Source: Alphaproteobacteria bacterium (GTDB lineage Bacteria; Pseudomonadota; Alphaproteobacteria; UBA7887). From it: a DNA stretch of 64,000 nucleotides. The notes below the pieces were generated by a model. It was given only the letters and a program-made list of their open reading frames with translations, was not told where the DNA came from and did no database searches. A program made the position numbers and the translations under genes. Below, one piece after another: positions 15,835 to 33,257 of this stretch; the first letter of the stretch is position 1; each line of letters opens with the position of its first letter. The stretch spans positions 2,953,166 through 3,017,165 of the forward strand of contig OZ241745.1 in assembly GCA_965201115.1 (NCBI GenBank), written 5' to 3'.

Positions 15835-15983
15835 GGCGGCACTATCGCCGCCGGCGCAATCCCGGTCAACGCGCCGCGCCGCGGCGGGCGCGGGACGCCA
15901 AGGCGCCGCCGCGCCGAAGCGTTGCGCCCCGGAAGCGCCGCGGATACCGACGCTTCGCCGCCCGAGCCTGTTTCATTCATACG

Positions 15984-16397
15984 CTATTTCACAAGGACGG
16001 TAAATCCCTCTTGTTCGAAATGCAGGTCGCTCGATAACACTTCCGAAATTCCCAATGTTCTCATGGCATGCATGGACGCGCAGTCCTGCATGCTGTAGCC
16101 CTTGTCGGATCTCTGCCGGAACAGCTCCAGGGCCGTCGTAAACGACTCGTGACTCTGGGGAAGTACTTCGATATCGGGATTCCGCGCGATTTCGTCCACA
16201 ATCCTTGCAGCGGCGTCTCTCAAGTATGCGCCGCGCTTCGAGAAACCGGTCAGGAATTCGGAAAGCGCTTCTTCCGTGGTTACCAGCCGGACTTTCCCCA
16301 GCCCCCGGCTCGCGCGGCGCGCGGCGTAATGCCATCGATCCTTCGGATTCGTGCGGGCTATCCAATACGCCGTATCGACAAATACCTTCTTGTTCAC
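15984..16397 (-). CDS. vapC: PIN-domain toxin (VapC-like)
   Basis: GTG start VNKKVFVDTAYWIARTN...; PIN acidic residues. GTGA overlap with the upstream small gene. Confidence 0.65.
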   Translation of the reverse strand: MNKKVFVDTAYWIARTNPKDRWHYAARRASRGLGKVRLVTTEEALSEFLTGFSKRGAYLRDAAARIVDEIARNPDIEVLPQSHESFTTALELFRQRSDKGYSMQDCASMHAMRTLGISEVLSSDLHFEQEGFTVLVK

Positions 16398-16789
16398 GCG
16401 TCGTCCCCGCCGTACAAGTAGCGGTCGTGCCTGTGGGACAGATCGTCCGGGAGCCGGGACCACTCGCTGTCGGGAACGCGCCGTGCGATGTCGTCGATAA
16501 TGTCCTCTATGCCGAGCGTATTCGGGCCGGGTTCGCTGTCCGGTCCCGCGGCGGGGCGCCCGATCGCGTCGTCGAGAGCGTCAAGGCCGAACGCCTTGTA
16601 TGCCTCCCATGCCGAGAGCCGGCGTTCCGCCGGCTTCGGCCTGCGCCGCTCGCGGCGATCGTATACGGCGAGTTGCCCATCGGCGCGCACGAACAGCCTG
16701 TCGGACCTGCGCGCCGCGTCTTCCACGCCGGCCGCCGATTCGGCCGCATGACCGAATACCCGAACCAGCCGGCGGCGATCGATGGTCAT
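16394..16789 (-). CDS. Putative antitoxin (VapB-like) of the PIN toxin
   Basis: 131-aa C-terminal part of ORF 16394..17008, starting MTIDRRRLVRVFGHAAES. Operonic with and overlapping vapC. Domain family not recognised. Confidence 0.4.
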   Translation of the reverse strand: MTIDRRRLVRVFGHAAESAAGVEDAARRSDRLFVRADGQLAVYDRRERRRPKPAERRLSAWEAYKAFGLDALDDAIGRPAAGPDSEPGPNTLGIEDIIDDIARRVPDSEWSRLPDDLSHRHDRYLYGGDDA

Positions 16790-17529
16790 TGCGATTCCTC
16801 CCGATACCGTTTCGCCTCTCGGGCGGCGCCGTCCCGACCCGGATACCGCGCCTCGTACCCGTAACGCGGGAATACGCCGACGGCCAGCTCGAGCCGGCGG
16901 TTGCCGATCGGCGGATGCCGCCCCGCCCCGCCCGATACCCGAGGCTCGATTCGCGAATCGTCCGCACCCGCGGCGCGCTTCCCGGGGGCGCGGGCGTCTC
17001 GCCCGCACGTTTCCGGGCGGCGTAGCGTCGGCGGGGAGGCGCTTGGCGTCCGCGCCGCGCTCCCGAGCGCCTCGCGGTCGCTTTCCGGGGCCGTCATGGC
17101 GGCACTATCGCCTCCCCCCGAACGGCGGTCAACGTGGCGCGGCGGGGGCGGGACGTCCGGGCGCCGTCGCGCCGAAGGCGCGGACTTCCCGGGTTGTCTA
17201 ATTCCGGCTACTCGGTCAACCCTCCTCCGGGTCCGTTCGCTGCCTTCCGTTCCGCCGGGAGCATGGTTGTCTGCGAAGTCATCGCCGTGCTTTCGAGTGG
17301 CGCGCTTCATGATGGCGTTCGTCAGCGTTGGCGTCCCAATGTGCGCGTCGCACTCCCGGACCGGCCTTGCCCTTTCGGGCGGGGGCGCGGTCCGACTTGC
17401 ATTCCAGGCAGCGGGATCGCCTCCGCTACCGTCCCGGCGGGGACGGGGCTTTCCGCCGAAGCGGAACCGTGTTGTCTCCTGTTCGTTGTTCAGCTGCCTC
17501 CGGGCGCGTTCGGGGCGCGCGGCGGCGGC

Positions 17530-18850
17530 GCTGCGTGTAGTCCACCGAGAAACGCAGCGCAGCGCCGCCGCCGCGCGCCCCGAACGCGCAACCCGCGCCG
17601 TGCGGGCGTGGCGGGCGCTGTCACGCGCGCTGCCCCTTGCCTGCCCGGCGCGGCGCCGGCGGCCTACGCCGCTTCCGCCGCGTCCGGCCAGCGGAAGGGC
17701 TCGCCGCTCGCCAGCATGCGATGCAGGATGACCGCCAGCCGCCGCGCCAAGGCCACGCACGCCTTCTTGAAACCGCTTCGCTTGCGCAACCGCCGCGCCC
17801 AGTCCTTGAGCGGATGACCGCGCTTGACCCGCGTCAGCAGGCAAGCCGCGCACTCGTACAGCAGCGACCGCACGCCGGGATCGCCGTGGCGCGATATGCG
17901 CCCCGTCCAGTCCATCTCCCCCGATTGACGCCGACGCGGCACAAGCCCCACATACGCGCCCACAGATCGCGAATCGGCAAACCGCGCCGCATCGCCCAAG
18001 TTCGCAACCAGCGCCACAGCCGTCATCGGCCCCACGGCCGGAGCCGTCATCGACAGCCGGCAGGCCTTGCTGGCCCGCGCCCGCGCCTCCACCTGCCTGG
18101 TGAGCGCCTTGAGCGAATGCAGCGTCTGCGCCAGCGAAACCAGCAACGGCTCCACCGCTTCCTGCAGCGGCGTATCCATGACCGCCTCGCGAACCCGCGC
18201 CGAAAACCGGCCCGAACCCTTCGAAAGCCGAATCCCCGCCGAACCCAGGATGCCCCGGACCGTGTTCTCCGCGTCGCGGCGCTGGCGCACCATAAGCCCC
18301 CGCGCGCGCAACAGCGCCTGCGTATTCGCGTCCCAAGCCCGCTTCACCGAAACCGGGGGGCAGAACTTCGTGCGCGCGATATCCGCCAGCAACGCCGCGT
18401 CCTTCGCATCCGTCTTGTTCGTCTGAAGGCGAAGCACCGCGTGAACGCGCCGAGCGTCCACCACATCCACGGCCTGCCCCAACGCCTCCATCTCGCGCGC
18501 CAGCCAGCCCGAATACGTCCCCGTCTCCATGACCACGCGCGCCGGCGACGGGCAGTGCTCGCGCACCGCCGCAAACAACGCCGCCGGATCCGTCGCAACC
18601 TTGCCCGCGACAACCGTCGCACCCGCATCGTTCTTGACGCAAAACGCCGTCTCTTCCTTCGACACGTCGAAACCGACATACTCCGCCATGGTCGCTCTCC
18701 CTGTTGGGTCCGTGAGTGGGGCGCACAACCCTGCGTGCGCAGCCCCGCATGATAGACCCGGGAGAGCGACCGACCGGAATTATCCCATGTCGGCGCCCCG
18801 CGCGACGTCGGCGATCCCTCGGGGGGCGCCTTCGTTCGGCGCCATGTGCT
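17530..18850 (-). mobile_element. IS110-family insertion sequence (ends approximate; family lacks clear inverted repeats)
   Basis: Transposase gene plus flanking leader and trailer. 9-bp-stem hairpin about 100 bp downstream of the transposase stop (about 17528-17570). Confidence 0.3.
17664..18689 (-). CDS. IS110 family transposase
   Basis: MAEYVGFDVSKEETAFCV... (DEDD N-terminus) and C-terminal GVGPMTAVALVANLGDAARFADSRSVGAYVGLVPRRRQSGE.... Confidence 0.85.
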   Translation of the reverse strand: MAEYVGFDVSKEETAFCVKNDAGATVVAGKVATDPAALFAAVREHCPSPARVVMETGTYSGWLAREMEALGQAVDVVDARRVHAVLRLQTNKTDAKDAALLADIARTKFCPPVSVKRAWDANTQALLRARGLMVRQRRDAENTVRGILGSAGIRLSKGSGRFSARVREAVMDTPLQEAVEPLLVSLAQTLHSLKALTRQVEARARASKACRLSMTAPAVGPMTAVALVANLGDAARFADSRSVGAYVGLVPRRRQSGEMDWTGRISRHGDPGVRSLLYECAACLLTRVKRGHPLKDWARRLRKRSGFKKACVALARRLAVILHRMLASGEPFRWPDAAEAA

Positions 18851-18853
18851 ATA

Positions 18854-19921
18854 ATGGCCGCCATGCGCGAGATACACGATGCCTCCTTCAAACTGTTTTT
18901 CGAGCATGAGCGGGCGGTCGCCGACCTGCTCGGGGGTTTCATGCGGCAGGCGATGGGCCCGGAGTTCGATGTCTCGCGCCTCGACCTCGCCAGCCTCGAA
19001 CCGGCGCCGGCGGAGTACGTGGACGAGGATCTGCGGCAGACGCGGGGCGACCGCGTGTGGCGGCTGCGCTACCGCGCCGCCGACGGCACGACCGGCTGGG
19101 TCTATCTGCTGGTCATGCTGGAGTTTCAGTCGCAGGTCGACCTGGACATGGCGGTGCGCGTGTATGCGTACACGGCTCAGTTGTATTCGCGGCTTCGCCG
19201 GGACGACCGGAAGAACCGGCGCGCGGGACCGCTTCCGCCGGTTTTGCCGATTGTCGTTTACAACGGTCGTGCGCGTTGGTCTGCGTCGCGGGAGGTTCGC
19301 GACGAGATAGCGCCTGCGGAGGCGGCGCTGGAGCGTTTTCAGCCCCGGCAGGGTTACCTGCTGCTCGATGTTCATCGTCTGCGGCCGGAGGATTTGCCGG
19401 CGGGCAACGTTGTGTCGGCGCGTTTTGCGCTTGAGCACGGCGATCCGGAGGCCGTGCCGGCGGTTGTCGCGGCGTTGCGTCGGTTGCTTTCGGGTCCGGA
19501 GCATGCGAGTTTGCGCCGTGCGTTCGGGGCGACGCTTCGACACATGATCGAGGCGAACCGGTTCGGGGCTTCGGACGGCGCGCTGGCTGCGCGTTTGAGG
19601 CGGGTCGGGGATTTGGAGGATTTGGGCGCGATGGAATCGTTGTTTGCGGAACGGCTCGACAGTTTGCTTGCCGAGCGCGAAGCGCGCGGCGTATCTCTTG
19701 GCGAGGCGCACGGTCTTGAGCGTGGCGCGGCGCGCGAGCGTGCGCTTCTGGCGCGGCAGGCGGGCCGCAAGTTCGGGGCGGAGGCGGCTTCGCGGCTGGC
19801 GGCTGCGGTGGCGGGCGTGGACGATCCGGACCGACTCGAGGAGGTCGGCGACGCGGTGATCGTGTGCGCGAGCGGCGACGCGCTGCTGGCGCGCGCCAAG
19901 GAGATCGCCCACCGCCGCTGA
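18854..19921 (+). CDS. Rpn family recombination-promoting nuclease / putative transposase (YhgA-like, PD-(D/E)xK)
   Basis: MAAMREIHDASFKLFFEHERAVADLLGGF...WVYLLVMLEFQSQVDLDMAVRVYAYTAQLY. TATAAT hexamer at 18848-18853. Confidence 0.7.
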   Translation: MAAMREIHDASFKLFFEHERAVADLLGGFMRQAMGPEFDVSRLDLASLEPAPAEYVDEDLRQTRGDRVWRLRYRAADGTTGWVYLLVMLEFQSQVDLDMAVRVYAYTAQLYSRLRRDDRKNRRAGPLPPVLPIVVYNGRARWSASREVRDEIAPAEAALERFQPRQGYLLLDVHRLRPEDLPAGNVVSARFALEHGDPEAVPAVVAALRRLLSGPEHASLRRAFGATLRHMIEANRFGASDGALAARLRRVGDLEDLGAMESLFAERLDSLLAEREARGVSLGEAHGLERGAARERALLARQAGRKFGAEAASRLAAAVAGVDDPDRLEEVGDAVIVCASGDALLARAKEIAHRR

Positions 19922-20074
19922 CCGCGCGCCAGGGCGCGCTTCCCGGGATCGCAAGCGTCTCGACAGCCCCGAGCCCCGCGGATCCCCGCAATGCCCCGCC
20001 CGCTCCGGCGCGCTTCTTGGGTGCGCGGGCGTCTCGCCCGCACGTCGGCGACCCGCGCGGCGCCCGCCGGGGAG

Positions 20075-20160
20075 AGGCGCAACCCCGCCGAAGGCGGGGC
20101 CCGGGACCGCGGGCATCCTGCCCGCACGTTCCCGCACGCCGCGGCATTGCCGGGAAGGGC
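20075..20160. repeat. REP/MITE-like double-hairpin repeat unit (consensus core ccccgccgaaggcggggcccgggaccgcgggcatcctgcccgcacgtt)
   Basis: Copy of a family found at seven or more loci in the window. Translates as the spurious peptide RAGCPRSRAPPSAGL on the reverse strand. Confidence 0.5.
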
Positions 20161-20375
20161 AAAGCCGTTACGCCCCTCCCGCCAATGATCGGCACTGTCG
20201 AGACGCGCCCACGGCGCGTCTTGACCGGTCCCGAAATAACGTTGCGCTCGCGCGCCGTGTATGGCGTAATGCCTGCATCCGCGCGTTGCCCATTTCCGCC
20301 GAGGAGCGCTCCGTCATGACAATGCCCTGTCCACACCGAGGGGTTACGCCCTCGCTTGCCGTGCAAACAAACGTA

Positions 20376-20393
20376 CCCCCCCCCCCCCCCCCC
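20376..20393 (+). repeat. Homopolymeric poly-C(18) tract at the 5-prime end of the giant autotransporter gene (candidate slipped-strand phase-variation switch)
   Basis: 18 consecutive C, read as 6 Pro codons in ORFs 20286.. and 20356... Lies 20 nt upstream of ATG 20413. Confidence 0.6.
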
Positions 20394-20458
20394 GTGGCAG
20401 GCGGAATCTCGCATGGAAACGCTCGCTTCGGAGCATCGGCGCCGCGCTCGCGCCGGGG

Positions 20459-22810
20459 TTGCTTCTCGCGCTCGCCTTGTGGGCCGGGCATGCGCCGGCG
20501 CAGACGAACGTGTGCCGCGGCGGGCCGCCCACGGGCAGCGGAAATATCGAATGCGTCGAATCCAGCGGCGCGGCCGACATCCTCATCGCCCTGGGGAACG
20601 CCGGCATCGACCATTCCACCAACAACGAGGCGAGCATCCTGGCTCGTCACGGCGGTACCGGCGGCATCGAGTTTCGCATGACGGCCGGAACCGTCGTAGG
20701 CAGGGGGACCGCCACTCACGGCATGTATGCCCGGCACGACGGAGCGACCGGCGGCGGCGCCATAGTCATCCGCATGAGCGGCGGCTCCGTCGAGACGCGG
20801 GGGTCGGGCGCCTTTGCCATCTGGGGCAGGCGCGCGACCGGGACGGGCAATATCCGCATCGACGTGACCGGCGGTTCCCTGTCGAGAACGGGGGGGACAG
20901 GCGATGTCGTTTTGGGCCAACACGGGGGGACGGGCAACGTAAGCGTCAGCATGAGCGGCAGCGCGGCGACGGGGACGAACGTCGGCGGCCTCGCCGGCGC
21001 CCACTCCGGGACGGGCAACATCGCCGTCAGCATGACCGGCGGCTCCATCGCGACGAGCGGCGTGGGCGTCACCGCCTCGAAGAGCAGCTCCACGGCGGGC
21101 AACATAACCGTCACCGTCGCGGGCGCGAACACTACGGTCAAGACGACGGGCAGCAACGGCCACGCCGTCAACGCCTCCAACAGCGGGGCGGGCAGCACCG
21201 CGGTCACCGTGAAAGACGGCCTGATCGAGACGAGCGGAGGCGGGGCCCGGGGCATCAACGCCTATTCCAACTATACGGGGACGAACCCCGGAGCGATCTC
21301 CGTCGTCATGGAAGGCGGCGCGGTCCGCACGTCGGGCGGGGCTTACTTCGATATCCTCCACGCCCACGGGATTTACGCCGAGAGCAACAATGGGCGCCAC
21401 AACGTCTCGGTGCGCATGGCGGGCGGCTCGGTCGAGACGGCGCAGGCAAGCGCCAACGGGATAATCGTCCTCAAGCGGGGGCCGGCGGGAGCGGGCTCCA
21501 TCGAGATGACGGGCGGCTCGGTCAGAACGGCGGGCGACGGCGCCCGCGGCGCCTACGTCTATATGTATGGAACCGGCGCGAGCACGGAGGGGCTTTCTAT
21601 CGACGCGGAGGGCGCCGTCTCCGCGGAGGGTCTGAACGCCAGAGGTCTCGCGGGATTCCACTTGGGCCTCGGCTCCGCCACTATAACGACGCGGGCGGCG
21701 GCGGAGATCGAGGCGCCGTTCGCGGTCGGGATGGAGGGGCGTCTCACGAGCGATACGAGCGCGGCGGGGCGCATCGTGGTCACGCATGGGGGCGCGGTCG
21801 AGGCGCGGGATGTCGGCGTGCTCGCGTGGGCGCGGCGGTCGAGCGGCCACACGATGGGCTCCGGCGCGACGACGGCGAACGACGCGGCGCGGACGACGCC
21901 GATGATCCACGTTACGTCGAGCGGAACGGTCACGGTGGGCGCGCCGGTGACGGAGGCTTTCATCCGGGGCCGCATCGCGGGCGACGGCGGACTGTCGACG
22001 CTCGAGGAGGCCGTGCTTACGGCGATAACGGATAACGATTCGAGCGCGCTGACGACGGCGCTGGCGGCGCTTCCGGCTTCTTACGACGCCGCCTGGAAGG
22101 CGGCGGCGCAGGAACTTCTGCGCAAGCGCACGACGGCGACCGCGACACCGACCGACAACGCGGTGCTGGGGCATCGTGCGGCCGAGGAGATCTTGGGCCT
22201 TTCGCGCGCGGGCATCCGCGCTTCGGCGCTTTCCCACACGGCGATCGCCGATTATGTGCGCGGCAGCGACGCGCTCTCGACCGCGGAGCGCACGGCGCTG
22301 ACGGCCGTGCTGACGGGCGACAGCAGCGGGCTGACGACGGCGCTGACCGCCCTTACCGGCGCCGCGTACACGACGGCGTGGAAGAACACGGTCCGGCAAC
22401 ACGCGTTGACCTACAATGCCGGCGATATTCAGGTGGACATTACGGGCGGCTCCATTACCGCCGACGGGAACGGCGTGGAGGCGTTCTATGCGATCCCGCA
22501 CGACAGCAACGGCGACATCGCGGTGACGGTTTCCGCCGGCGCGCGTGTTACGGGCGGTGCGACGGGCATCTATGTCCGCGGCGCGGGCGTGACGGCGGGC
22601 GCGCGCAACCAAGCGGTGACGGTCCACGGCGCCGCGATGGGCGGAACCGGGGCGGGCGTGCATGCGGTCGGCGGCGGCGCGGTGACGGTGGGCGCGAGCG
22701 GCGAGGTAGGCACGGTGGGCGCGGCGCCTTCGGGCATCGGCATTCTCGGCGATGGCGGCGGCGATCTGACGGCGACGGTTTCGGGGACGGTGACGGGCGA
22801 CATCCGCGTC
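20459..22810 (+). CDS. Giant autotransporter adhesin, N-terminal reading-frame segment (signal peptide plus Gly/Thr-rich passenger repeats); frame broken at 5-prime end and at about 22.8 kb
   Basis: Frame 2 encodes RSLRSIGAALAPGLLLALALWAGHAPAQ (signal peptide) but has no in-frame ATG as sequenced. Repeats continue to ...TVSGTVTGDIRV at 22810, then the true frame shifts +1. Confidence 0.6.
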
Positions 22811-25800
22811 AGTCAATGGCGGCGGCGGCCTGGCGGCGACGGTCAAGGACGGCGGCACGGTTACGGGCGACATCCGCGTCGGCGGCAGCGGTTCGTTGAC
22901 GGCGATGGTCGAGGCCGGCGGCGCGGTGGAGGGGACGATACGCGACCCGCAGGCTTCGTTCACGGTTTCGGGCAGCGTCGGGCGCGTTCTCTATGCTTCG
23001 GGCGGAACGGTGACGGTGGCCGGGGGCGCGAAACTGACGGGCGTCTCCGGCACGGCCGCCGAGAGCACGGCGGGGGCGCTGACGGTCACGGTCCAAAACC
23101 GGGGCCGCGTCGAGGCCGACATCGAGTCCGGCGGGACGCTGATGGTTACCGTCAACGACGGCGGCGTGGTAACGGGGACGATAGAGGATCCGCAGGCTTC
23201 GTTCACGGTCGGGAGCGGGGCGCGCATCGGGCGCATTCTTTACACCGGCAGCAGCGGCGGGACGGTGACGGTGTCCGGCGGCGGGACGCTTACGGGCGTC
23301 GAGGGCGTGGCCGCCGAGAGCACGGACTCGGGGGGCGCGCTGACGGTCACGGTGAACGACAACGGCCGCGTCGAGGGCGACGTCAAGTCGGCCGGCACGC
23401 TGTCGGCGACCGTCGATGCCGGCGGCGTGGTTACGGGGACGATACACGACCCGCAGGCTTCGTTCACGGTTTCGGGCAGCGTCGGTCGCGTTCTCTATGC
23501 CTCGGGCGGAACGGTGACGGTGTCCGGCGGCGCGAAGCTGACGGGCGTCGAGGGCGTGGCCGCCGAGAGCACGGCCGGCGCGCTGACGGTTGCGGTGAAC
23601 GACAACGGCCGCGTGGAGGGCGATATCAAGTCGGGCGGCACGCTGTCGGCAACCGTCGATGCCGGCGGCGTGGTTACGGGAACGATACACAACCCGCAAG
23701 CTTCGTTCACGGTTTCGGGCAGCGTCGGTCGCGTTCTTTACGCCAGCGGCGGAACGGTGACGGTGTCCGGCGGCGCGAAGCTGACGGGCGTCGAGGGCGT
23801 GGCGGCGGAGAGCGCGGCGGGCGCACTGACGGTCACGGTGAACGACAACGGCCGCGTCGAAGGCGACGTCAAGTCGGCCGGCACACTGTCGGCGACGGTC
23901 AACGTCGGCGGCGTCGTGACGGGGACGATACACAACCCGCAAACGCCGTTCACGGTTTCGGGCAGCGTCGGGCGCGTTCTTTACGCCGGCGGCGGAGCGG
24001 TGACGGTATCCGCGGGCGGGACGCTGACGGGCGTCGAGGGCGTGGCCATCGAGAGCACAACCGGCGCGCTGACGGTCACGGTGAGCAACCGGGGCCGCGT
24101 CGAGGGCGGCATCGAATCGGGCGGGACGCTGACGGCGAACGTCATGGCCGGCGGCGTCGTGACCGGAACGCTCCGCAACCCGCAGAGTCCGCTCACGGTT
24201 TCGGGCAGTGTGGGGCGCATTCTCTATGCCCGCGCGAGCGGCGGGACGGTGACGGTCGCCGCCGGCGGCGCGGTAACGGGCGTCGAGGTCGATGGCGCAA
24301 CCGAGGCGATCCGCGGCAATGCGGGCAATCTCGACGTCACGGTGGCGGCGAGGGGCGCGGTCACGGGTCTCGTCGAGGGCCGCGGGCCGGGCAATCTGAA
24401 GGTTACGGTCGCCGGCTCGTTGGCGGGCGGCATTGCCGAGCGCGCCGCGGGCGATCTTGAGGTTTCGGTCGCCGGAACGGTTACGGGCGGCATTGTCGGC
24501 GCGGGCGCGGGCGAACACACGGTCACGGTGGCGTCCGGCGGCGCGGTTACGGGGACGGTACATTTGGCGACCGGCGCGGCGACCATCGCGGGCCGCGCGG
24601 CGCGCGTGCTTTACGACAACGGCGGCATGGCGACGGTCGCCGCGGGCGGCGAGATCGCGGGCGTCGATGTCGAGGGAACGATGGAGGCGATTCGCAACGA
24701 TGCGGGCAATCTCGAGGTCACGGTTGCGTCCGATGGGGAGGTTGCGGGGCGCATCGAGGATCGCGGCGCGGGCAATCTCGAGGTCGAGGTTTCCGGCGCG
24801 GTCGCGGGCGGCATCGTCGAACGCGAGGCGGGCAATCTGGACGTCACGGTGACGGCCAGCGGCGCGGTCACGGGCAACATCGAGGGCCGCGATGCGGGCA
24901 ATCTGAAGGCCGCGGTCTCCGGAAACGTAACCGGCGATATCGTCGAACGCGGGGCGGGCGATCTCGACGTCACGGTGTCGGCAACGGTCACGGGCGGCAT
25001 TGTCGGCGAGGGCGCGGGGGCGCACAAGGTGTCGGTGGAGTCCGCCGGCGCGGTAACAGGCACGGTGCGCCTGCCGGGGAACGCGGAGACGACGGTCGCG
25101 GGCACGGTGGGGCGCGTTCATTACGACAACGGAGGCGCGGTCACGGTCAACGCGAACGGCGAGATTGCGGGCCTCGAGATCGAGGGCGTCCGGGAGGCGG
25201 TCCGCGGCGACGCGGGGGATTTGGCGGTTACCGTTCACGGGACGGTAACGGGCAATATCGAGGCGCGCGGCGATGGCGACCTGACGGTGATGGTTTCGGA
25301 GACCGGGACGATTGCGGGGGAGATATTCGGTCGCGGCGGGGGCATGCATACGATCGAGATCGCGGACAAGGCGCGGGTTGTGGGCACGGTGCATAACCCG
25401 AAGCGGGGGACGACCATAAGCGGCGCGGTGGGCCGCGTTCTGTTCGACAACGGCGGCGCGCTGACGATTGCGGCGAGCGGTCGCGTCTCTGGCGTCGGCG
25501 GCGAGGCGATCCGCAGCGCGGCGGGCGACCTGGAGGTCGCGATTGCCGGCGAGGCGACCGGAAATGTTGAGAGCCGCGGCGGGGCGCTGGCGGCGACGGT
25601 AACCGGCACGGTCGAGGGCGACATACTGGGTCTCGGCGCCGGCGAGCACACGGTGGCGGTTCGCGGCGGCGGGATGGTTACGGGCACGGTGCGCCTGGCG
25701 GCGGGCGAGGCGGATGTGGAGCACGGCGCGGCCGGGCGCGTGCTGCTGGACCGGGGCGGGTCCGTGAAGGTCGGGGCGCGGGGCGAAATCAAGGGCCTCG

Positions 25801-28310
25801 AGGTCGAGGGCGTTCGGGAAGCGATCCGTTCCGACGCGGGAGACCTGACGGTGGCGATTGCGTCCGGCGGCGCGGTCAAGGGCCGCATCGAGGGGCGCGG
25901 CGCGGGCAACATGACCGTGAACGCGGGCGGCGCGGTGACGGGCGCCATCCTTGGCAAGGGCGCCGGTAGGCACGAGATCGCGGTCGCCTCCGGCGGCTCG
26001 GTTACGGGCGACATCGTCGATATGGAGGCCGGCGGCCTGGTCGCGACGGTCGCGGGTTCGGTTACGGGCGCAATTGAGGAGCGCGGCGCGGGGGACCTGA
26101 CGGTAACGGTTGCGGGCGCGGTTTCCGGGGATATCCGCGGCCTGGGCGCCGGCGTGCATCGGGTTACGGTTGCGTCCGGCGGTTCGGTTGCGGGCGCCAT
26201 CCGCGGCGCGGGCGCGGGTTCGCACGCAGCGACGGTCGCGGGCCGCGCGGCGCGCGTGCTCTACGAGAACGGCGGTTCGGTCACGGTCGCATCCGGCGGC
26301 GCGGTGTTGGGCGTCGGGACTTCGGACGGCGGTCGCGAGGCGATCCGCGGCGCGGCGGGCGACCTGACGGTGGACGTAGCGGCGATGGGGACCGTGGCGG
26401 GCGATATCCGCGGCGCGGGCGATGGCGATCTGAAGGTGGATGTGAGCGGCAAGGTCGAGGGCGGGATATTCGGCCTTGGCGGCGGCGAGCACGACGTTCA
26501 TGTGAAATCCGGCGGCTCGGTCGAAGGTCTCATCCACCTGGCCGCCAGCACGGTGACGGTCGAAGGGGCCGCCCGGAGCGTGCTGTTCGACCGCGGCGGC
26601 ACGGTGTCGGTCGGCGCCGGGGGGCGCCTGTCGAACCTCGACGGGCGTGCGGCGGTGCGCAGCGAAGCCGGCGATCTGATGGCGATGGTGAACGGCAATG
26701 TCACAGGCAATATCGAGGGCATGGGCGCCGGAGCGCTGATGGTCACGGTCGCCAACGAACTGACCGGCGGCGTCATCGGCGGCGACGGCGGCATGCACCG
26801 GCTGACGGTGGCGGCCGGCGGGACGTTCAAGGGGCACGTCGAGGGCCTGGAGGCCATTCGCATCGCCGGGCGCGCGGAAGCGGCGCGCCCGCTGACGGTT
26901 TCCGATGGCGGCGAGGTGACGGTCGCGGCTGGCGGCGTGCTCATGGGCGCGGAGGACGCGCAGGGCCGCCGCGTGGCGGTCTCCGTTGCAACGGGCGCGC
27001 TGAACATGACGGTCGAAGGGGAAGGCATGGTGCAGGGCGCCGTGGAGGCGCGCGACGCCGCCGCCGCCTCGACCGTGACGGTCGATGCCGGCGGCGCCAT
27101 CGACGGCCGCGTCGCGCTGGCGGGCGCCGGCAGCGAAGTCACGGTCGACGGCGCGGCGCAGAGCGTCGATGTGCCCCGGGGCGCGGTGACGGTGGGCGAG
27201 AACGGGCGCATCGCGGAGCCCGTCATCGGCGCCGAGACGGTAACGATACGTGCGGCGGCGGGCGAAACCGACGAGGAGGCGGCGCTGCGCCTGGGCGGCG
27301 GCCGCATCGACGCCGCCGGCGCGACGATTACGCTCAAGCGCCAGGGCCGCGTCGATTCGCGTCTCCGGATAACCCGCGACGGTCGCATCGAGGTGGGGCC
27401 GGCGCCGCGCCACCGCGTGTACGAAGCTCTGCCTTCGGCTCTGCTGGCGCTGAATGCACTGCCCGCCCACGGCGACCGTTTCGCCGCGGCGGGCGCGCCG
27501 CGCGGCGCGTTCGCGCGCCTCGACGCCGCCGGCGGCGACCGCCATCCGGCGTCGTCTGTCGCGCAGGCGCATCACGATTACCGCCGCTTCGGTTTCGAGG
27601 CGGGGATAGAGGGCGCGGCGGGCGAGCGCGGCGTGTTCGCGATCTCGGTTCATCATGTGCGCGGCCGCGCGGACGTGGACACGGACGCGGACACCGAGGC
27701 GGGCGGCGGCCGTGTCGAGATAACCGGCACGGGCGCGCGCATATCGGGCGCATGGCTGCCCGCGGAGAACGTCTATGTGAGCGCTCAGGCCGCGGCGACG
27801 CTGTACGAGACCGACCTCGATTCGGACGTGGCGCTCGAGGGCGCCCTTGCGCGGGACTTGTCGGGCCGCGGCTACGCCGCCGGCGTGGAGATCGGGCGGC
27901 GCCTCGACCTGGGCCGCGTAACGCTGACGCCGCGCGCGGGCGCCGATTGGTCGATGGTGGAGATGTCGTCGTTCACGGACTCCGTGAACGAGCGCGTGTC
28001 GCTGGACGCGGGCCGGCGCATAACGGCCCGCGCCGGCGTGCGCGCCGAGTCCGCCGCCCTCCCCGGCGGCGCCGGCGCCATGTTCGCAACGCTGGACCTT
28101 GAGCGCGAACTGTCCGGCGCAATGGAAACCACGGCGGCGGACCGCCCCTTCGAAGCCGAAGCGGAAGCGACATGGGCCCGCCTCGGCCTCGGCGCCGCCC
28201 ACGAATGGGCCGACGGCCGCATAGCCCTCCGCGCCAACGCCAACTACGCCGCCGCCCGCCACGGCAACCGAGACTTCAGCGGCAGCGCCGCACTCACCGT
28301 GCGCTTCTGA
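22809..28310 (+). CDS. Giant autotransporter adhesin, C-terminal segment: about 1,500 aa of tandem Gly/Val/Thr-rich passenger repeats plus autotransporter beta-barrel translocator (ends ...AALTVRF)
   Basis: Frame 0 is open from 22794 (first ATG at 22896). Repeats are of the type GGxVTGTIxDPQASFTVSGSVGRVLYASGGTVTVSGGAKLTGVEGVAAESTAGALTVTVNDNGRVEGD. C-terminal beta domain has a terminal aromatic residue. Confidence 0.7.
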   Translation, partial: SVNGGGGLAATVKDGGTVTGDIRVGGSGSLTAMVEAGGAVEGTIRDPQASFTVSGSVGRVLYASGGTVTVAGGAKLTGVSGTAAESTAGALTVTVQNRGRVEADIESGGTLMVTVNDGGVVTGTIEDPQASFTVGSGARIGRILYTGSSGGTVTVSGGGTLTGVEGVAAESTDSGGALTVTVNDNGRVEGDVKSAGTLSATVDAGGVVTGTIHDPQASFTVSGSVGRVLYASGGTVTVSGGAKLTGVEGVAAESTAGALTVAVNDNGRVEGDIKSGGTLSATVDAGGVVTGTIHNPQASFTVSGSVGRVLYASGGTVTVSGGAKLTGVEGVAAESAAGALTVTVNDNGRVEGDVKSAGTLSATVNVGGVVTGTIHNPQTPFTVSGSVGRVLYAGGGAVTVSAGGTLTGVEGVAIESTTGALTVTVSNRGRVEGGIESGGTLTANVMAGGVVTGTLRNPQSPLTVSGSVGRILYARASGGTVTVAAGGAVTGVEVDGATEAIRGNAGNLDVTVAARGAVTGLVEGRGPGNLKVTVAGSLAGGIAERAAGDLEVSVAGTVTGGIVGAGAGEHTVTVASGGAVTGTVHLATGAATIAGRAARVLYDNGGMATVAAGGEIAGVDVEGTMEAIRNDAGNLEVTVASDGEVAGRIEDRGAGNLEVEVSGAVAGGIVEREAGNLDVTVTASGAVTGNIEGRDAGNLKAAVSGNVTGDIVERGAGDLDVTVSATVTGGIVGEGAGAHKVSVESAGAVTGTVRLPGNAETTVAGTVGRVHYDNGGAVTVNANGEIAGLEIEGVREAVRGDAGDLAVTVHGTVTGNIEARGDGDLTVMVSETGTIAGEIFGRGGGMHTIEIADKARVVGTVHNPKRGTTISGAVGRVLFDNGGALTIAASGRVSGVGGEAIRSAAGDLEVAIAGEATGNVESRGGALAATVTGTVEGDILGLGAGEHTVAVRGGGMVTGTVRLAAGEADVEHGAAGRVLLDRGGSVKVGARGEIKGLEVEGVREAIRSDAGDLTVAIASGGAVKGRIEGRGAGNMTVNAGGAVTGAILGKGAGRHEIAVASGGSVTGDIVDMEAGGLVATVAGSVTGAIEERGAGDLTVTVAGAVSGDIRGLGAGVHRVTVASGGSVAGAIRGAGAGSHAATVAGRAARVLYENGGSVTVASGGAVLGVGTSDGGREAIRGAAGDLTVDVAAMGTVAGDIRGAGDGDLKVDVSGKVEGGIFGLGGGEHDVHVKSGGSVEGLIHLAASTVTVEGAARSVLFDRGGTVSVGAGGRLSNLDGRAAVRSEAGDLMAMVNGNVTGNIEGMGAGALMVTVANELTGGVIGGDGGMHRLTVAAGGTFKGHVEGLEAIRIAGRAEAARPLTVSDGGEVTVAAGGVLMGAEDAQGRRVAVSVATGALNMTVEGEGMVQGAVEARDAAAASTVTVDAGGAIDGRVALAGAGSEVTVDGAAQSVDVPRGAVTVGENGRIAEPVIGAETVTIRAAAGETDEEAALRLGGGRIDAAGATITLKRQGRVDSRLRITRDGRIEVGPAPRHRVYEALPSALLALNALPAHGDRFAAAGAPRGAFARLDAAGGDRHPASSVAQAHHDYRRFGFEAGIEGAAGERGVFAISVHHVRGRADVDTDADTEAGGGRVEITGTGARISGAWLPAENVYVSAQAAATLYETDLDSDVALEGALARDLSGRGYAAGVEIGRRLDLGRVTLTPRAGADWSMVEMSSFTDSVNERVSLDAGRRITARAGVRAESAALPGGAGAMFATLDLERELSGAMETTAADRPFEAEAEATWARLGLGAAHEWADGRIALRANANYAAARHGNRDFSGSAALTVRF

Positions 28311-28320
28311 TCGCGGAAGA

Positions 28321-28485
28321 AGCCGCAACCCCGCCGAAGGCGGGGCCCGGGACCGCGGGCATCCTGCCCGCACGTTGCCGCAGGCCGCGATATTGCTGGG
28401 AGCGGCGATCATCAAGCCCCTCTTGGCAGCATTTGTAGCGTTGGCAACGTGCGGGCGGGGATGCCCGCGGTCCCGGGCAGTCCGC
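28321..28485. repeat. REP/MITE-like repeat: one full unit plus an inverted partial unit (hairpin pair, possible terminator downstream of the autotransporter gene)
   Basis: aaccccgccgaaggcggggcccgggaccgcgggcatcctgcccgcacgttgccg ... gtgcgggcggggatgcccgcggtcccgggcag. Confidence 0.5.
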
Positions 28486-28502: not shown

Positions 28503-31139
28503 TCAGTTCAGCCGGAGGCGCACCCCGACGAACGCGGCCAGTGGCTGCCCGGGCGAGATGAAGCGCGGGTCCAGAACCGCGTTATCTTGATGTTTCAGTT
28601 CGTGGATGGGGACCTCGACTTCCAGTTCGCCGTCCTCCATTTCGGCGGCTTCGCCGAAAATGCCGAAGGTGCGGTATTTCCGGTCGAACAGGTTCTCGAT
28701 CCTTCCGAACGCCTCGATCCAGTCGGTTATGCGGTAACTCGCGTCGAGATTCACGACCGTGTAGCCATCGGTCGGCGAGGCCAGATTGGCTTCGTCGCCG
28801 CGGTAATACACGCCGGAGCGATAGATCATGCTCGGGCCGATGCGCAGGCCGTCGAACGGTTCGGTATCGACCCCCAGATTGAGGCTGTGCTCGGGCACGC
28901 CGGGGATCTTGTCGCCGGGCCGCACCTCGATGCCACCCCTGTCCGCCCGCGGGTGGTTTTCGGCGAAGACGGTGAAGGACGACTGGAAGGTGGCGTCGAC
29001 ATAGCCGTAGTTGACGCGCCATTTCATCGGGCCGGCGTCGCCGCGCAGCTTGACCTCCACGCCTTGGCGGCGGGTTTCCGACACGTTTTGGAAGAACCCG
29101 CTCGAAATGCCGCCGCCCGTTTCCGGCCTCTTGGTCAGGAATACGATGTCGTCGCTGTTCGTGGCGCGGAAGGCGCTCACGGTCCAGTCGATCGAGGTCA
29201 GGCCGCCCATGCCGCCGCGGCGGATGGAGCCGCGCGCGCCGGCTTCGAAGGTGCGCGAGATCACCTGGTCGAGCGGCGGATCGGCGACGAACGCATTGGG
29301 CAGGTTGCACGGGTCGTTTTCGTCGGCGCAGCTGAGCTCCGCGGGCGAGGGCGCGCGGTTGCTCTGGCGGTATCCGCCGAACAGCGTCACGTCGGAGTCG
29401 GGCATCGACCACGCGGCGCCGATGGCGAGGTTGATGGCGGTGTAGTCGTGGCTGCCCGTCAACCGGTCCTGCGGCTCGCCGAGAAACACCGAGCGGTCCT
29501 TCAGGACAATCTTCGCGATATTGGCCGCCACCGACCCCGTGACCGACAGGCCGCGGCCGAGGTCCAGCGTGTCGGACGCATAGACGCGGTAGTACTTGTT
29601 CTCGGCGACGAGATTAACCGGCGCGGTGTCGACCCGGCACAGTTCCTCGCCGCCGCGCTCGACGCAGACGCCTTCGTCTTCGCCGTTGTCGGCCTCGCCG
29701 TTTCCGTTGTCGTCATCGTCGTCGTCGTCGTCGTCTTCGGGGCGGGCGGCGACGTACAGGCCACGCATGCCGTCGGAGCGGGGGATGACGGCGCGGTCGC
29801 CGAAGCGCAGTTCGCCGAGCTCCTGTGCGTTCCGGAATTCCGTCTCGCCCATATCGGCCCCGACGCCGAAAACGAACTGGTTGTCCATGCCGCCGAGCGG
29901 CGTCTCGATCAGCGCCTGCACGCTGGCGCCGTAGGCGGTGGATTCGGTCTCGCTGGTGTTCAGCGCGCCATAGACGTTCATGCCGCCGGTCAGGGGAATC
30001 GCGGGGATCGGGTTTCCGTTCCGGTCGTAGAAGACGAACTCTTCCTCGTCTTCTTCTTCGTCGTCATCGTCGTCCTCGCCGCCGTTCGCGGCGCGATCGT
30101 TCCCGCCGCCGTTCTCATCGTCGTCTTCTTCGGCCTCGCCGCAGATGTAGCCTTCGTTGTCGTCGCCCTCGCAGGCGCCGGCATCGACCTCATCGCCGTT
30201 GAGTGTGTCGCGGTTCAAGCGGCGGTAATATGCGTTGGCTTGGATGGCGATGTTTTCGGCGATCCACGCCTCGCCGCTGGCCGAGATCAGGACGTTGCGA
30301 TTTTGCGTCCGGTCCGGATTGGTGAAGATCGACTCGGGCCGGATGTCGTAGAGCTCGATCGGCGCCAGGCCGTTGCCGATCAGGTCGGTCGAGGCCCAGG
30401 ACAGGTTTACGCGCATGGAGCCGTTTTCGCCGTCGGCGCCGCCGGCGGCGAAGAAGCGGTCGAGTTGCGACGGCGACGCGTCGCGCCAGCCGTCCTCGCG
30501 GTCGTGCTGGTAGGCGGCGAACAGGTTGAAGTCGCCGCTGTCCATGCCCGCGCGCGCGGTTGTGCGCAGGCGGCCGAACGAGCCGCCCGACTGCGACAGT
30601 TCCGCCCCCTGGAAGGTGGTTCCGTCGTGCGTGAGCAGTACGAGCGCGCCGCCCAGCGCGTTAAAGCCGAAGGCCGGATTGGCGTTGCCGAGCTCGATGC
30701 CGCGAATCGCCATTTCCGGGAACAGGTCGGACTGCACCACATCGCCGAACGGGTCGTTGATGCGCACGCCGTTCTGAAACGCGGCGATGCCGACGCTCTC
30801 GCCCAGCAGCGGGCCGGCGACGAAGCCGCGGTAGTTGAAGTTGCGCTGATACGGGTTGTTCTGCAAATCGACCGCGGAGGCGCCGGCGAACGAGCGCTCG
30901 ACGAAATCGTAGAGCGTGAGACTGCCCTCGGTCTCGAACGCGCCCGGCTCCGCCGCCTGCACGTTGTACGGAACCTTGTCGATGGGCAGGCCCGCGCCGG
31001 CGAGCGGGGTAACGCCGATCACGTCGATATCGGGCAGTTCGGCCGGCCCGGCGCCGGCCTCCTGCGCGCGCGCCTGGTGCGTGGCCAGCGCGCAGAACGC
31101 GCACGCGGCCGCGAGCCGCATCCATGAACGTATCGCCAT
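28503..31139 (-). CDS. TonB-dependent outer-membrane receptor with unusual poly-acidic (Asp/Glu-rich) loop insertions
   Basis: Signal peptide MAIRSWMRLAAACAFCALATHQARAQE. Plug domain (DIDVIGVTPL...FNYRGF) and 22-strand barrel. Inserts EDDDENGGGNDRAANGGEDDDDDEEEDEEE and EDDDDDDDDDNGNGEADNGEDEG. Confidence 0.85.
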   Translation of the reverse strand: MAIRSWMRLAAACAFCALATHQARAQEAGAGPAELPDIDVIGVTPLAGAGLPIDKVPYNVQAAEPGAFETEGSLTLYDFVERSFAGASAVDLQNNPYQRNFNYRGFVAGPLLGESVGIAAFQNGVRINDPFGDVVQSDLFPEMAIRGIELGNANPAFGFNALGGALVLLTHDGTTFQGAELSQSGGSFGRLRTTARAGMDSGDFNLFAAYQHDREDGWRDASPSQLDRFFAAGGADGENGSMRVNLSWASTDLIGNGLAPIELYDIRPESIFTNPDRTQNRNVLISASGEAWIAENIAIQANAYYRRLNRDTLNGDEVDAGACEGDDNEGYICGEAEEDDDENGGGNDRAANGGEDDDDDEEEDEEEFVFYDRNGNPIPAIPLTGGMNVYGALNTSETESTAYGASVQALIETPLGGMDNQFVFGVGADMGETEFRNAQELGELRFGDRAVIPRSDGMRGLYVAARPEDDDDDDDDDNGNGEADNGEDEGVCVERGGEELCRVDTAPVNLVAENKYYRVYASDTLDLGRGLSVTGSVAANIAKIVLKDRSVFLGEPQDRLTGSHDYTAINLAIGAAWSMPDSDVTLFGGYRQSNRAPSPAELSCADENDPCNLPNAFVADPPLDQVISRTFEAGARGSIRRGGMGGLTSIDWTVSAFRATNSDDIVFLTKRPETGGGISSGFFQNVSETRRQGVEVKLRGDAGPMKWRVNYGYVDATFQSSFTVFAENHPRADRGGIEVRPGDKIPGVPEHSLNLGVDTEPFDGLRIGPSMIYRSGVYYRGDEANLASPTDGYTVVNLDASYRITDWIEAFGRIENLFDRKYRTFGIFGEAAEMEDGELEVEVPIHELKHQDNAVLDPRFISPGQPLAAFVGVRLRLN

Positions 31140-31306
31140 AAGTCGTCTCCTCGAGTTTGCGCCCGTTGCGGCGCGCCGGACAATACAGGACTGTATAACC
31201 CGCGTCAAAGTGCTTTTTCGTAAATGCCCGCCGGTGGTTTCGTTGACGAAAACGTGGGCATGAACGCGGTATTACTGGAGGAAAGCGGTTATTTACATGC
31301 GATTTG

Positions 31307-31408: not shown

Positions 31409-31945
31409 CTACTCGCCCTCGCCGATCTCCCACAGTTCGGGGTTGGCCTCGACGACGGCGCCGGTGGCGGCGTCGATCTCGACGTTCATCTCGCCGCCGC
31501 CGGTGAGAACGATGTCGAACTCATAGACCGCCGTTCCATCGGTCTCGACGCCGTATTCGACGCTTTCGACCTCGCCGGGGAACATGGCCAGCGCGGCGGC
31601 GCGGGCGTCGTCCTCGGAAATCGCGGCGCGGCCAGCGAACATGGGGTCGGTTTTCCCGACCTCGCGCTCGATCTCGCGAATCATGGCGTTCTCGGCGCCG
31701 ACCTCGACCTCCCAGCGCACGCCGTCGGGCGCCAGGATGTCGAAATCGTACACCGGCTCGCCGTCCTCGAACTTGTACTCGACATTGAGCGCCTCGCCGC
31801 CGAACACGTCGAGGGCGGCTTGCAGGCATTGCTCGAGGGTCTTGTCGTGGGCGTCGGCATACTCGCCGATGTCCATCGCCGGCGCCGGCGCGGCGGCAAG
31901 GAAGAGCGCGCCGCCGAGGGCGGCGGCAAGAGCGGGCGTTTTCAT
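31409..31945 (-). CDS. PepSY domain-containing secreted protein
   Basis: Signal peptide MKTPALAAALGGALFLAAAPAPA, then two PepSY-like repeats (...GGEALNVEYKFEDGEPVYDFDI... / ...PGEVESVEYGVETDGTAVYEFDI...). Confidence 0.65.
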   Translation of the reverse strand: MKTPALAAALGGALFLAAAPAPAMDIGEYADAHDKTLEQCLQAALDVFGGEALNVEYKFEDGEPVYDFDILAPDGVRWEVEVGAENAMIREIEREVGKTDPMFAGRAAISEDDARAAALAMFPGEVESVEYGVETDGTAVYEFDIVLTGGGEMNVEIDAATGAVVEANPELWEIGEGE

Positions 31946-32004
31946 TGTTCGAACCTTTCCGGGAGGGTTGCGGTCCATGCGTATCCGCGGCCGGCGCGGG
32001 CGGG

Positions 32005-33003
32005 TTACAAGCCCCCGTCCATGCGCTTTCGCCACGCGAGCGCGGTACGCACGATGTAACGCAGGTTGTCATGGCGCGGCGTCCAGCCGAGCGCGGCGCG
32101 GAGGCGCGACGGATCGGCCACCAGCGCCGGCGGGTCGCCGGCGCGGCGCGGCCCGTCCCGGACCGCGAGCGCGGCGCCAGCTTCCTCCGCCGCCGCCGCC
32201 AGCACTTCGCGCACCGAATAGCCGCGCCCGTAGCCGCAATTGAGAACGCCGCCGGCGCCGCCGGCCTCGAGCCAGGCGAGCGCCGCGACGTGGACGTCGG
32301 CCAGGTCGCTCACATGGATGTAGTCGCGCACGCAGGTTCCATCGGGCGTGTCGTAGTCGGTTCCGAACACGGTCACGCCCGGGCGCGCGCCGACGGCGGC
32401 CTCGCACGCGACGGTGATCAGGTGCTCCGCGTGGCGCCCGCGCTGGCCGGCGCGGCCCCGCGGGTCCGCGCCGGCGACGTTGAAGTAGCGCAGCGCCGTC
32501 CATGTCAGGCCGTGCGCGGCGGCGGCGTCGGCCAGCGCCCATTCGGCGGCGAGTTTCGAGCGCCCATAGGGGTTGATCGGCGCCGTGGGCGCGTCCTCGC
32601 GGGCCGGCGAGACGGCGGGGACGCCATAGACGGCGGCGGTGGACGAGAACACGAAACGCCGCACGCCGGAATCGACACAGGCGCGGATGAGCGCGGCGGT
32701 GGCCGCGGTGTTGTTGCCGTAATAGGGCAACGGATCGCGCACCGATTCGGGCACGCTCGCGCTGGCGGCGAAATGTATGACGGCGCCGATTTGCCGCGCC
32801 TCGAGCAGGCGCCGCATGGCGGCGTAGTCGCCCGCGTCGCCTTTTACGAACTCCGCGCCCGGCGGAACGGCGGCGCGGCGGCCGGTCGAGAGATCGTCGA
32901 GGACGGTTACCGGCCGGCCGGCCTCCATGAAGGCGAGCACGGCATGGCCGCCGATATAGCCCGCGCCGCCGGTAACGAGGACGCGGCCGCCTGCCGCGCT
33001 CAA
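32005..33003 (-). CDS. galE: UDP-glucose 4-epimerase
   Basis: VLVTGGAGYIGGH Rossmann fold, YGRSK catalytic motif. TTG start chosen because the upstream part of the ORF is the translated tRNA. Confidence 0.8.
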   Translation of the reverse strand: MSAAGGRVLVTGGAGYIGGHAVLAFMEAGRPVTVLDDLSTGRRAAVPPGAEFVKGDAGDYAAMRRLLEARQIGAVIHFAASASVPESVRDPLPYYGNNTAATAALIRACVDSGVRRFVFSSTAAVYGVPAVSPAREDAPTAPINPYGRSKLAAEWALADAAAAHGLTWTALRYFNVAGADPRGRAGQRGRHAEHLITVACEAAVGARPGVTVFGTDYDTPDGTCVRDYIHVSDLADVHVAALAWLEAGGAGGVLNCGYGRGYSVREVLAAAAEEAGAALAVRDGPRRAGDPPALVADPSRLRAALGWTPRHDNLRYIVRTALAWRKRMDGGL

Positions 33004-33032
33004 CAGGCGGGCGCGGGCGGGGCGGGGGGCGG

Positions 33033-33108
<76 letters not shown>

Positions 33109-33257
33109 GAAAAGGCGCCCCCGGCGCCGCGCGGGAGGCAACCTTGGCACGCCCGAAGCGGGAAGGCAAGCGGAAACCCGGGTAAGCGCCGACGGTTGAC
33201 GCGGGGCGCGCCGGGTGGTCTGCTTCGCCCCGGGTTGCGCGGGTAGGAGGGAGCATC

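Follow-up and report, generated by a model that had tools for sequence, protein, structure and literature searches.

A giant type Va autotransporter gene, probably inactivated in the copy studied, from a family that is probably governed by slippage at a homopolymer tract

Can the gene for a giant surface protein be switched by a homopolymer tract, and can the copy at hand still make its protein? Both questions are raised by positions 20413-28310 (plus strand) of a 64,000-nucleotide (nt) stretch of DNA from an Alphaproteobacteria bacterium (contig OZ241745.1; this whole stretch is called the window), for which the original prediction had proposed, from the letters alone, a single gene for a repeat-rich autotransporter adhesin of a kind that is often phase-variable. 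Our answer, which as a whole we consider likely to be right, is that the gene belongs to the type Va autotransporters, that this copy has been inactivated and that the family of the gene is probably governed by homopolymer slippage.

The assignment to the type Va (classical) autotransporters is solid. As predicted from sequence and structure models, the protein plan combines an N-terminal Sec signal peptide, a beta-helical passenger and a PF03797 barrel, with the parts placed as follows (aa, amino acids):

20417-20503, plus strand: coding sequence of the signal peptide KRSLRSIGAALAPGLLLALALWAGHAPAQ (frame 2), homologous to MSTRTLAAALAPGLLLALALWAGEAAAQ in relatives
20504-22811, plus strand: N-terminal passenger, a beta-helix at residues ~45-510, an alpha-helical insert at ~510-665, after which the beta-helix resumes
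22818-24440, plus strand: six tandem passenger repeats of 81-87 aa (DPQxxFTV...GRVLY...), delimited by motif spacing
24441-27533, plus strand: six degenerate GRVLY-type modules of 101-172 aa with ~20-aa sub-repeats, then a linker to the barrel
27534-28244, plus strand: autotransporter beta-barrel translocator domain (PF03797)
28308-28310, plus strand: stop codon TGA, after the terminal ...TVRF

Scans of the whole protein against Pfam and NCBIfam gave zero matches and missed PF03797 as well, because of composition bias. Taken by itself, that outcome would have refuted the original prediction by its own test. When the C-terminal 333 aa were scanned alone, a clear match to PF03797 (Autotransporter beta-domain) was found (99.3 bits at a cut-off of 26, E=3.9e-28, profile positions 8-255 of 255), which bears out the earlier claim of a classical autotransporter beta-barrel ending in AALTVRF. 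The C-terminus itself (...AALTVRF*) has the aromatic terminal residue that is a signature of outer-membrane proteins. At the other end, the n-, h- and c-regions of a signal peptide were seen by inspection in KRSLRSIGAALAPGLLLALALWAGHAPAQ, which aligns with the signal peptides of the relatives; in the window, neither ATG nor GTG stands in frame with it. With barrel, putative signal peptide, beta-helical passenger model and terminal Phe all present, the type Va label given by the original prediction holds.

For the N-terminal 797 aa, AlphaFold2 with a family alignment of 32 sequences gave a model with a predicted local distance difference test score (pLDDT) of 86.8 and a predicted template modelling score (pTM) of 0.87, in which residues ~45-510 form a three-faced beta-helix; its closest fold in the PDB was the passenger of Bordetella Vag8 (7akv_G), a weak match (E=0.17, 14% identity). 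Conservation within the family, as judged from invariant columns, is highest in and around the helical insert (~510-665, about 21940-22410); the insert holds two similar ...ALTTALAALP..Y..AWK... segments with many family-invariant residues and is without a Pfam match. Over all passenger models, the fold matches were to the Vag8, Ag43, TibA, Hbp and pertactin passengers. A pertactin-like passenger, for which the original prediction had proposed a domain search, did not emerge at the level of sequence families, as scans of seven sub-segments gave no match at E<=1 to pertactin (PF03212), PATR (PF12951) or AIDA. A PDB sequence search with the C-terminal 433 aa returned nothing meaningful. By fold and by analogy, the most likely prediction for the passenger is a surface fibre with a role in adhesion or self-association. 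In autotransporters, the Sec signal peptide leads the protein to the periplasm, where the 12-stranded barrel inserts in the outer membrane and exports the passenger. The intact protein would likewise be directed to the periplasm by its signal peptide, its C-terminal 12-stranded barrel would insert in the outer membrane and then export a very long beta-helical passenger, and the length of that passenger would depend on the count of ~81-aa and degenerate repeat modules.

The next question is whether the window copy can be read through. The window has a guanine-plus-cytosine (GC) content of 70.7%, and because of this, long spurious open reading frames (ORFs) occur on both strands. Positions 20413-28310 consist of pieces in three frames, and the ORF listing gives 20459-24460 and 22896-28310, in different frames. 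The features on which the reading frame turns are these:

20413-20415, plus strand: ATG proposed as the start by the original prediction, in the third frame, reading METLASEHRRR...
22808-22815, plus strand: 4-bp tandem duplication GTCAGTCA, which moves the reading frame from 2 to 0
22809-28415, minus strand: antisense shadow ORF of 1,868 aa, from the ORF listing

The ATG at 20413 was found to miss the frame of the signal peptide by one base (ATGG AAA CGC..., read from the sequence), and the signal-peptide frame contains no ATG or GTG after the C tract described below. This frame encodes a sensible Gly/Thr/Val-rich protein up to ...TVSGTVTGDIRVSQ, near 22816, and Arg-rich nonsense beyond, and sensible protein restarts at ~22818 in the frame of ORF 22896-28310, where it continues to the stop codon. 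In a DNA alignment of the junction, the GTCA insertion was absent from the three homologues compared (those of L004 and L001 and the upstream paralogue of L005; homologous loci are labelled L001-L015, and L016 and L017 are related alphaproteobacterial genomes used for synteny): the window reads CGC-GTCA-GTCAATGGC and the homologues read CGC----GTCGATGGC. Dropping one GTCA copy (22812-22815) gives DIRVNGGGGLAATV, colinear with DIRVDGDGSLTANV of the intact L005 protein. After two edits, the removal of one GTCA and of G20416 (which converts ATGG AAA to ATG AAA), one ORF of 7,893 nt (2,630 aa) runs through without a stop. Neither lesion is within a homopolymer. Passenger and barrel are split between frames in the window copy by the shift at 22808-22815 and are joined in 16 relatives.

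Of the original claim of one gene of ~2,600 aa, the long coding region from ~20413 to the TGA at 28308-28310 therefore stands, and the single continuous frame does not, since the region is frameshifted and lacks an in-frame start. As assembled, the copy would not be expressible: the duplication would separate signal peptide and N-terminal passenger from repeats and barrel, and the signal-peptide frame would be left without a start codon of its own. We also considered a programmed ribosomal frameshift at GTCAGTCA and rejected it, as the motif is not found in the homologues and has no slippery-site context. The antisense ORF, correctly described before as an artefact, has a GC content by codon position of 0.86/0.58/0.74, the mirror of the sense values (0.74/0.58/0.86), and its product would be 21% Ala and 20% Arg; it is a consequence of the high GC content and not a gene.

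What could make such a gene phase-variable? Directly upstream of the signal peptide we found a tract, overlooked by the original prediction, together with a short leader ORF:

20301-20375, plus strand: leader ORF MTMPCPHRGVTPSLAVQTNV, with a Shine-Dalgarno (SD)-like GAGGAG at 20301-20306 and an ATG at 20316, reading into the C tract
20376-20393, plus strand: homopolymer tract C18, a putative slipped-strand phase-variation switch

No homopolymer in the 64 kb other than C18 reaches 8 nt (the longest of the remaining C or G runs has 7), and C18 lies about 20 bases upstream of the ATG at 20413 and 23 nt before the first signal-peptide codon. With 18 C residues the leader runs out of frame across the main start; only C19, C16 or C22 would join the ATG at 20316 in frame to the signal peptide, as MTMPCPHRGVTPSLAVQTNV-P6-RGRRNLAWKRSLRSIGAALAPG.... 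A scan for sigma-70 promoters around the tract in the window gave nothing, and an Rfam scan of the window gave a tRNA only, with no known leader or riboswitch. The four leaders that were folded were less structured than shuffled controls (z of +0.7 to +1.7), with the C tract unpaired. Two hairpins were discarded as candidates: a terminator-like one at 20436-20456, which lies within the signal-peptide coding sequence, and one that would sequester the ribosome-binding site, as the same four leaders show no structure beyond the shuffled controls.

The tract is conserved across the family, which gives the earlier guess of phase variability a concrete basis. In 15 of 19 homologous genes, all from assemblies of uncultured bacteria, a tract of C10-C32 or G15-G17 was found at the equivalent place, and in the poly-C relatives it lies 19-34 nt before the start of the signal peptide. 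Long-read assemblies are prone to error in long homopolymers, so that each length in the following list, and the frame that depends on it, may be off by 1-2 nt:

L001: C19
L002: C13
L003: C30
L005: C32
L006: C23
L007: C14 in the first gene, C16 in the second gene
L008: C20
L011: C11
L012: C16
L013: C19
L014: C10 in the first gene, C14 in the second gene
L010: G17 (distant member)
L015: G15 (distant member)

Runs of at least 10 nt are concentrated at this place: 16 of the 23 in 387 kb (window plus loci) are just upstream of the signal peptide of a member of the autotransporter family. All three orthologue pairs, which come from different samples, differ in tract length, whereas the downstream flanks are 91-99% identical: C11 versus C16 for L011 and L012 (downstream flank 98.7% identical), C14 versus C10 for the first genes of L007 and L014, and C16 versus C14 for their second genes. 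We take the tract to mark a slipped-strand contingency locus because the tracts of orthologues differ in length while the flanks are conserved, and expression in this family is probably governed by slipped-strand mispairing at the tract.

The leader is conserved as well. All 14 poly-C genes (that of the window and 13 relatives) have an SD-like purine block followed 5-9 nt on by ATG or GTG, for instance GGAGGAGAGAAGCCG-ATG; ATG and GTG swap at the same site, and SD and start are retained in 14 of 14 despite sequence divergence. From its start, 16-60 nt before the tract, the leader ORF runs on into the tract. Beyond it, a second SD (GAGGAG or GGGAG) with ATG, GTG or TTG, and then a canonical signal peptide, follow in most relatives. 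The leader ends in several ways in these 14 genes: six are fused in frame with the signal peptide, three end with a TGA that overlaps the main start (ATGA or GTGA), one has an early stop and four, the window gene included, run out of frame over the main start. A different arrangement was seen in L015, a 44%-identical homologue, where at 3913-3947 the G15 tract lies between TTGCAT and TAATGT (TTGCAT-ac-G15-TAATGT), with a 17-nt spacer and ~60 nt before the ATG; it plausibly resembles a promoter-spacer switch, unlike the leader arrangement of the poly-C genes.

How far do these observations carry? We regard it as quite likely that the window copy is a disrupted family member, a recently inactivated gene that is a pseudogene or OFF as assembled, because the lesions are outside homopolymers and a 4-bp tandem duplication is typical of replication error. 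The alternative, which we think improbable, is that both frame breaks are errors of assembly or consensus and that the organism has an intact, functional autotransporter of 2,630 aa. Two small edits do suffice for a stop-free ORF of 7.9 kb, but at 70% GC stop-free stretches arise often, the antisense ORF of 1,868 aa being an example, so this argument is weak. Also in favour of this alternative, the coding signature in GC at the third codon position is kept on either side of the break (0.87 and 0.86), and the relatives come from long-read metagenome assemblies, some of low coverage (the L013 contig is named '3x'). Long-read errors concentrate in homopolymers, however, and the lesions are elsewhere; a clean tandem duplication of 4 bp is what replication typically produces and is atypical of consensus error, and L003 is broken too, by a 1-nt deletion outside homopolymers, which suggests that decay is common in the family.

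Concerning the switch itself, a direct effect of the homopolymer on transcription, through promoter spacing or strength and with the leader ORF incidental, is unlikely in our view. Homopolymers that act on promoter spacing are known from the poly-C tracts of the Bordetella fim promoter and the poly-G tract of Neisseria porA, the G15 of L015 is placed exactly between two promoter-like hexamers, and the relatives have their own SD and ATG beyond the tract. Yet sigma-70-like hexamers do not flank the tract in the window nor, by eye, in the poly-C relatives, where the tract ends 19-34 nt before the start and leaves no space for a -10 element and an SD-bearing leader, and the leader SD with ATG or GTG is preserved in every poly-C gene although the sequences have diverged. 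Far less probable still is a role of the tract as a regulatory RNA or peptide element, be it a polyproline leader that acts by stalling (dependent on elongation factor P or prolyl-tRNA), for which leaders of the mgtP/mgtL type are the model, or a C-rich Rho-loading site masked by translation of the leader. In every leader ORF the tract is read as Pro(n), but poly-C is proline in any frame, so this is trivial; the unstructured leader RNA with its unpaired C tract is as expected of a rut-like site, but two members have poly-G at the equivalent place, which gives neither proline nor C-rich RNA, and the range of 10-32 nt and the differences between orthologues fit a mutable repeat better than a tuned sensor. 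Several points weigh against our own interpretation. The tract lengths come from assemblies only, with homopolymer error possible, and for both frameshifts in the window, too, an origin in the assembly is conceivable in principle. The fused state is not enriched (6/14 against 1/3 expected by chance); the relatives have a good SD and ATG after the tract, from which the main ORF could be translated in any leader frame, and a paralogue in L004 uses the downstream start without any tract. Finally, no passenger or adhesin family of Pfam was matched, and the function of the passenger is predicted from its fold only.

On balance we favour translational control by tract length, with which both an ON/OFF fusion and three levels of output are compatible. 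The leader ORF, with its own SD, would be translated into the tract, and the length of the tract would choose whether the leader is fused in frame, stopped on the main start (ATGA) or read out of frame over the main start. A more daring proposal is that leader, tract, second SD with start and signal peptide together form a three-state translational switch that travels with a narrow autotransporter family, one that was spread by horizontal transfer among uncultured Alpha- and Gammaproteobacteria and Nitrospirales and forms tandem arrays there; we offer this tentatively and think it rather unlikely to hold in full. Fusion would then give an N-terminally extended pre-protein, termination at ATGA would give coupling and reading over the start would give occlusion. 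If true, such a switch would mean stochastic surface variation in non-pathogenic, possibly host-associated bacteria.

Further C and G tracts were seen outside the autotransporter family:

L003: 1222-1232 and 3459-3472
L009: 6381-6396
L012: 10520-10530
L017: 308-319, 2721-2743 and 19200-19209

The 23-nt tract of L017 (2721-2743) is inside or beside a giant LapA/PKD-like gene of 2,082 aa in a related alphaproteobacterium. These genomes may make wider use of homopolymer switches.

The family in which the tract is found is small and unannotated, and it is marked by the unusually long tract, the separate leader ORF and the conserved helical insert. A word-prefiltered search of a database of ~5.8 billion proteins gave 64 relatives at E<=1e-10, almost all from metagenome assemblies in ENA. 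In a scan of species-representative genomes, relatives (45-75% aa identity) were found only in complete long-read metagenome-assembled genomes (MAGs), under the labels Alphaproteobacteria, Gammaproteobacteria and Nitrospirales. In DNA sequence, the N-terminal 2.3 kb of the window gene shares 80-84% identity with loci of MAGs under the labels Alpha- and Gammaproteobacteria, and the GC content of the loci ranges from 60% to 73% across the family. The identity across labels suggests horizontal transfer among distant lineages of one habitat, or a loose or wrong taxonomy of the MAGs. Sixteen homologues are intact, with ~1,170-1,990 aa in a single frame from the signal peptide to a C-terminal ...RF, ...RY or ...SF. 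The closest relative, that of L003 (75% aa identity), has its frameshift near 11600, where one nt is deleted in GCGGCG, outside homopolymers, and a paralogue in L005 (3042-6668) is truncated; from such cases decay seems common in the family. Several loci carry tandem arrays:

L004 52-15148 and L005 3042-15814: at least 4 paralogues across both
L007 4577-14428: a pair
L010 2144-16003: three paralogues
L014 3908-11930: a pair

Within these arrays usually only part of the genes have a long tract, and the rest, which tend to be the downstream genes, show C6-C7 or none.

The number of passenger repeats is another variable of the family. The original prediction had counted more than 15 near-identical repeats of about 80 aa; the 81-aa repeat that it quoted is present, and the count and the degree of identity are lower than claimed, with six regular units and six degenerate modules (12 in total by motif counting). 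TRF reported a 243-nt unit at 22900-24230, in 5.4 copies with 81% matches, and in a DNA repeat search the copies were 63-91% identical to the reference copy. A single-sequence AlphaFold2 model of the region of 81-aa repeats was all-beta, with a periodicity of ~81 residues (pLDDT 75.9), and best matched the Ag43 and TibA passengers (E=2.8e-4, probability score 0.99, with template modelling scores, TM-scores, of only about 0.25). The 16 intact relatives have between 0 and 7 units of ~81-87 aa and between 0 and 9 modules in total, and most of the length range of about 1,170-2,630 aa arises because the module number varies. In L005, five units are nearly identical to each other, which indicates independent expansion and homogenisation within genes.

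We also inspected the surroundings of the gene in the window, where the following features were identified:

11554-12873, minus strand: MoeA
13927-15834, minus strand: UvrC
15984-16463, minus strand: PIN-domain toxin
17664-18728, minus strand: IS110-family transposase
18716-19921, plus strand: Rpn/YhgA-like gene
20080-20130, plus strand: REP-like (repetitive extragenic palindromic) element CAACCCCGCCGAAGGCGGGGCCCGGGACCGCGGGCATCCTGCCCGCACGTT, the upstream flank copy
20413-28310, plus strand: the autotransporter gene
28326-28376, plus strand: REP-like element, the downstream flank copy, with a core identical to that upstream and in direct orientation
about 28437-28478, minus strand: REP-like element, a diverged inverted copy
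28503-31208, minus strand: TonB-dependent receptor
31409-32035, minus strand: PepSY protein
32005-33150, minus strand: epimerase
33036-33108, minus strand: tRNA gene (Rfam RF00005, 67 bits)

The tRNA gene overlaps the 5' end of ORF 32005-33150, and the true start of the epimerase is thus further downstream. By its UvrC, the organism falls among uncultured Alphaproteobacteria, the named hits being "Alphaproteobacteria bacterium" and "Rhodospirillaceae bacterium". The best relatives in complete genomes are 82% identical, and the order FolB-UvrC-CDP-OH transferase-MobB-MoeA is common to L016 and L017. Synteny of the window with these two genomes (compared over window positions 15850-20400) holds on the MoeA side only and breaks directly upstream of UvrC, where the block of PIN toxin, IS110, Rpn and autotransporter genes begins. 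We found no flanking genes shared between the window and the homologous autotransporter loci. The gene is thus accessory and sits in a rearranged spot rich in mobile elements, because of the synteny break and the absence of shared flanks, in line with what had been proposed. The IS110, Rpn and toxin-antitoxin neighbours named before were recovered as the IS110 transposase, the Rpn/YhgA-like gene and the PIN toxin, and the REP flanks as identical elements at 20103-20130 and 28349-28376. These two are copies of a 28-nt core that is present at least 7 times in the window (0 expected) within a palindromic element of ~51 nt, with further copies at 51530-51629 and 54341-54758 (a cluster at 51.5-54.8 kb). 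A similar REP-like motif (gggagcgcgggcgtcccgcccgca) was observed between tandem paralogues in L004.

Taken singly, the locus is of little weight, since large autotransporters are well known among surface proteins and this copy of one has probably decayed; of more worth is the family context, with long C and G tracts before such genes in very different uncultured bacteria. It suggests that in environmental or symbiotic communities, too, giant surface proteins are subject to phase variation by contingency loci, a process studied mainly in pathogens. There are also practical warnings: whole-protein domain scans of low-complexity giants can miss the defining barrel, long ORFs at 70% GC conceal frameshifts, and gene callers are inconsistent on the start position around the tract in such genes.

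Among known systems, the self-associating autotransporters of the AIDA-I type (e.g. Ag43 and TibA) are similar in being type Va with a long, repetitive beta-helical passenger, and their structures 7koh (E=2.8e-4, probability score 0.99) and 4q1q were the top folds for the region of 81-aa repeats. They differ in that the window protein has no AIDA, PATR or pertactin match in Pfam, that the TM-scores are about 0.25 and that the repeat unit is ~81 aa, compared with rungs of ~19 aa in Ag43; phase variation of Ag43, moreover, proceeds via Dam and OxyR, with no homopolymer involved. Bordetella Vag8 and pertactin share the right-handed beta-helical passenger followed by a PF03797 barrel, whereas the conserved alpha-helical insert of ~155 residues in the window family had no counterpart that we found in them.

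With regard to the switch, 5'-end repeats in opa and pilC of Neisseria and lic1 of Haemophilus set the frame relative to upstream starts, and several starts give graded or ON/OFF output. The window family is alike in that the repeat is at the extreme 5' end, where its length would fix the frame with respect to start codons upstream; unlike in those genes, most relatives keep an independent SD and ATG after the tract, so that translational coupling or occlusion may be at work in the switch, beyond a simple ON/OFF of the frame. A parallel in kind of protein is given by NalP and MspA of N. meningitidis, two autotransporters whose phase variation depends on homopolymeric tracts (PMC3723659). Here too an autotransporter gene carries a poly-C or poly-G slippage tract (in the window family, a putative switch). 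The tract of NalP and MspA is inside the coding sequence, whereas that of the window family is in a leader ORF with a start of its own, just before the signal peptide; it is also much longer (up to C32), and its hosts are uncultured environmental or possibly host-associated bacteria instead of pathogens. Phase-variable homopolymer autotransporters are thus already known, and the locus in the window would be a further, damaged example.

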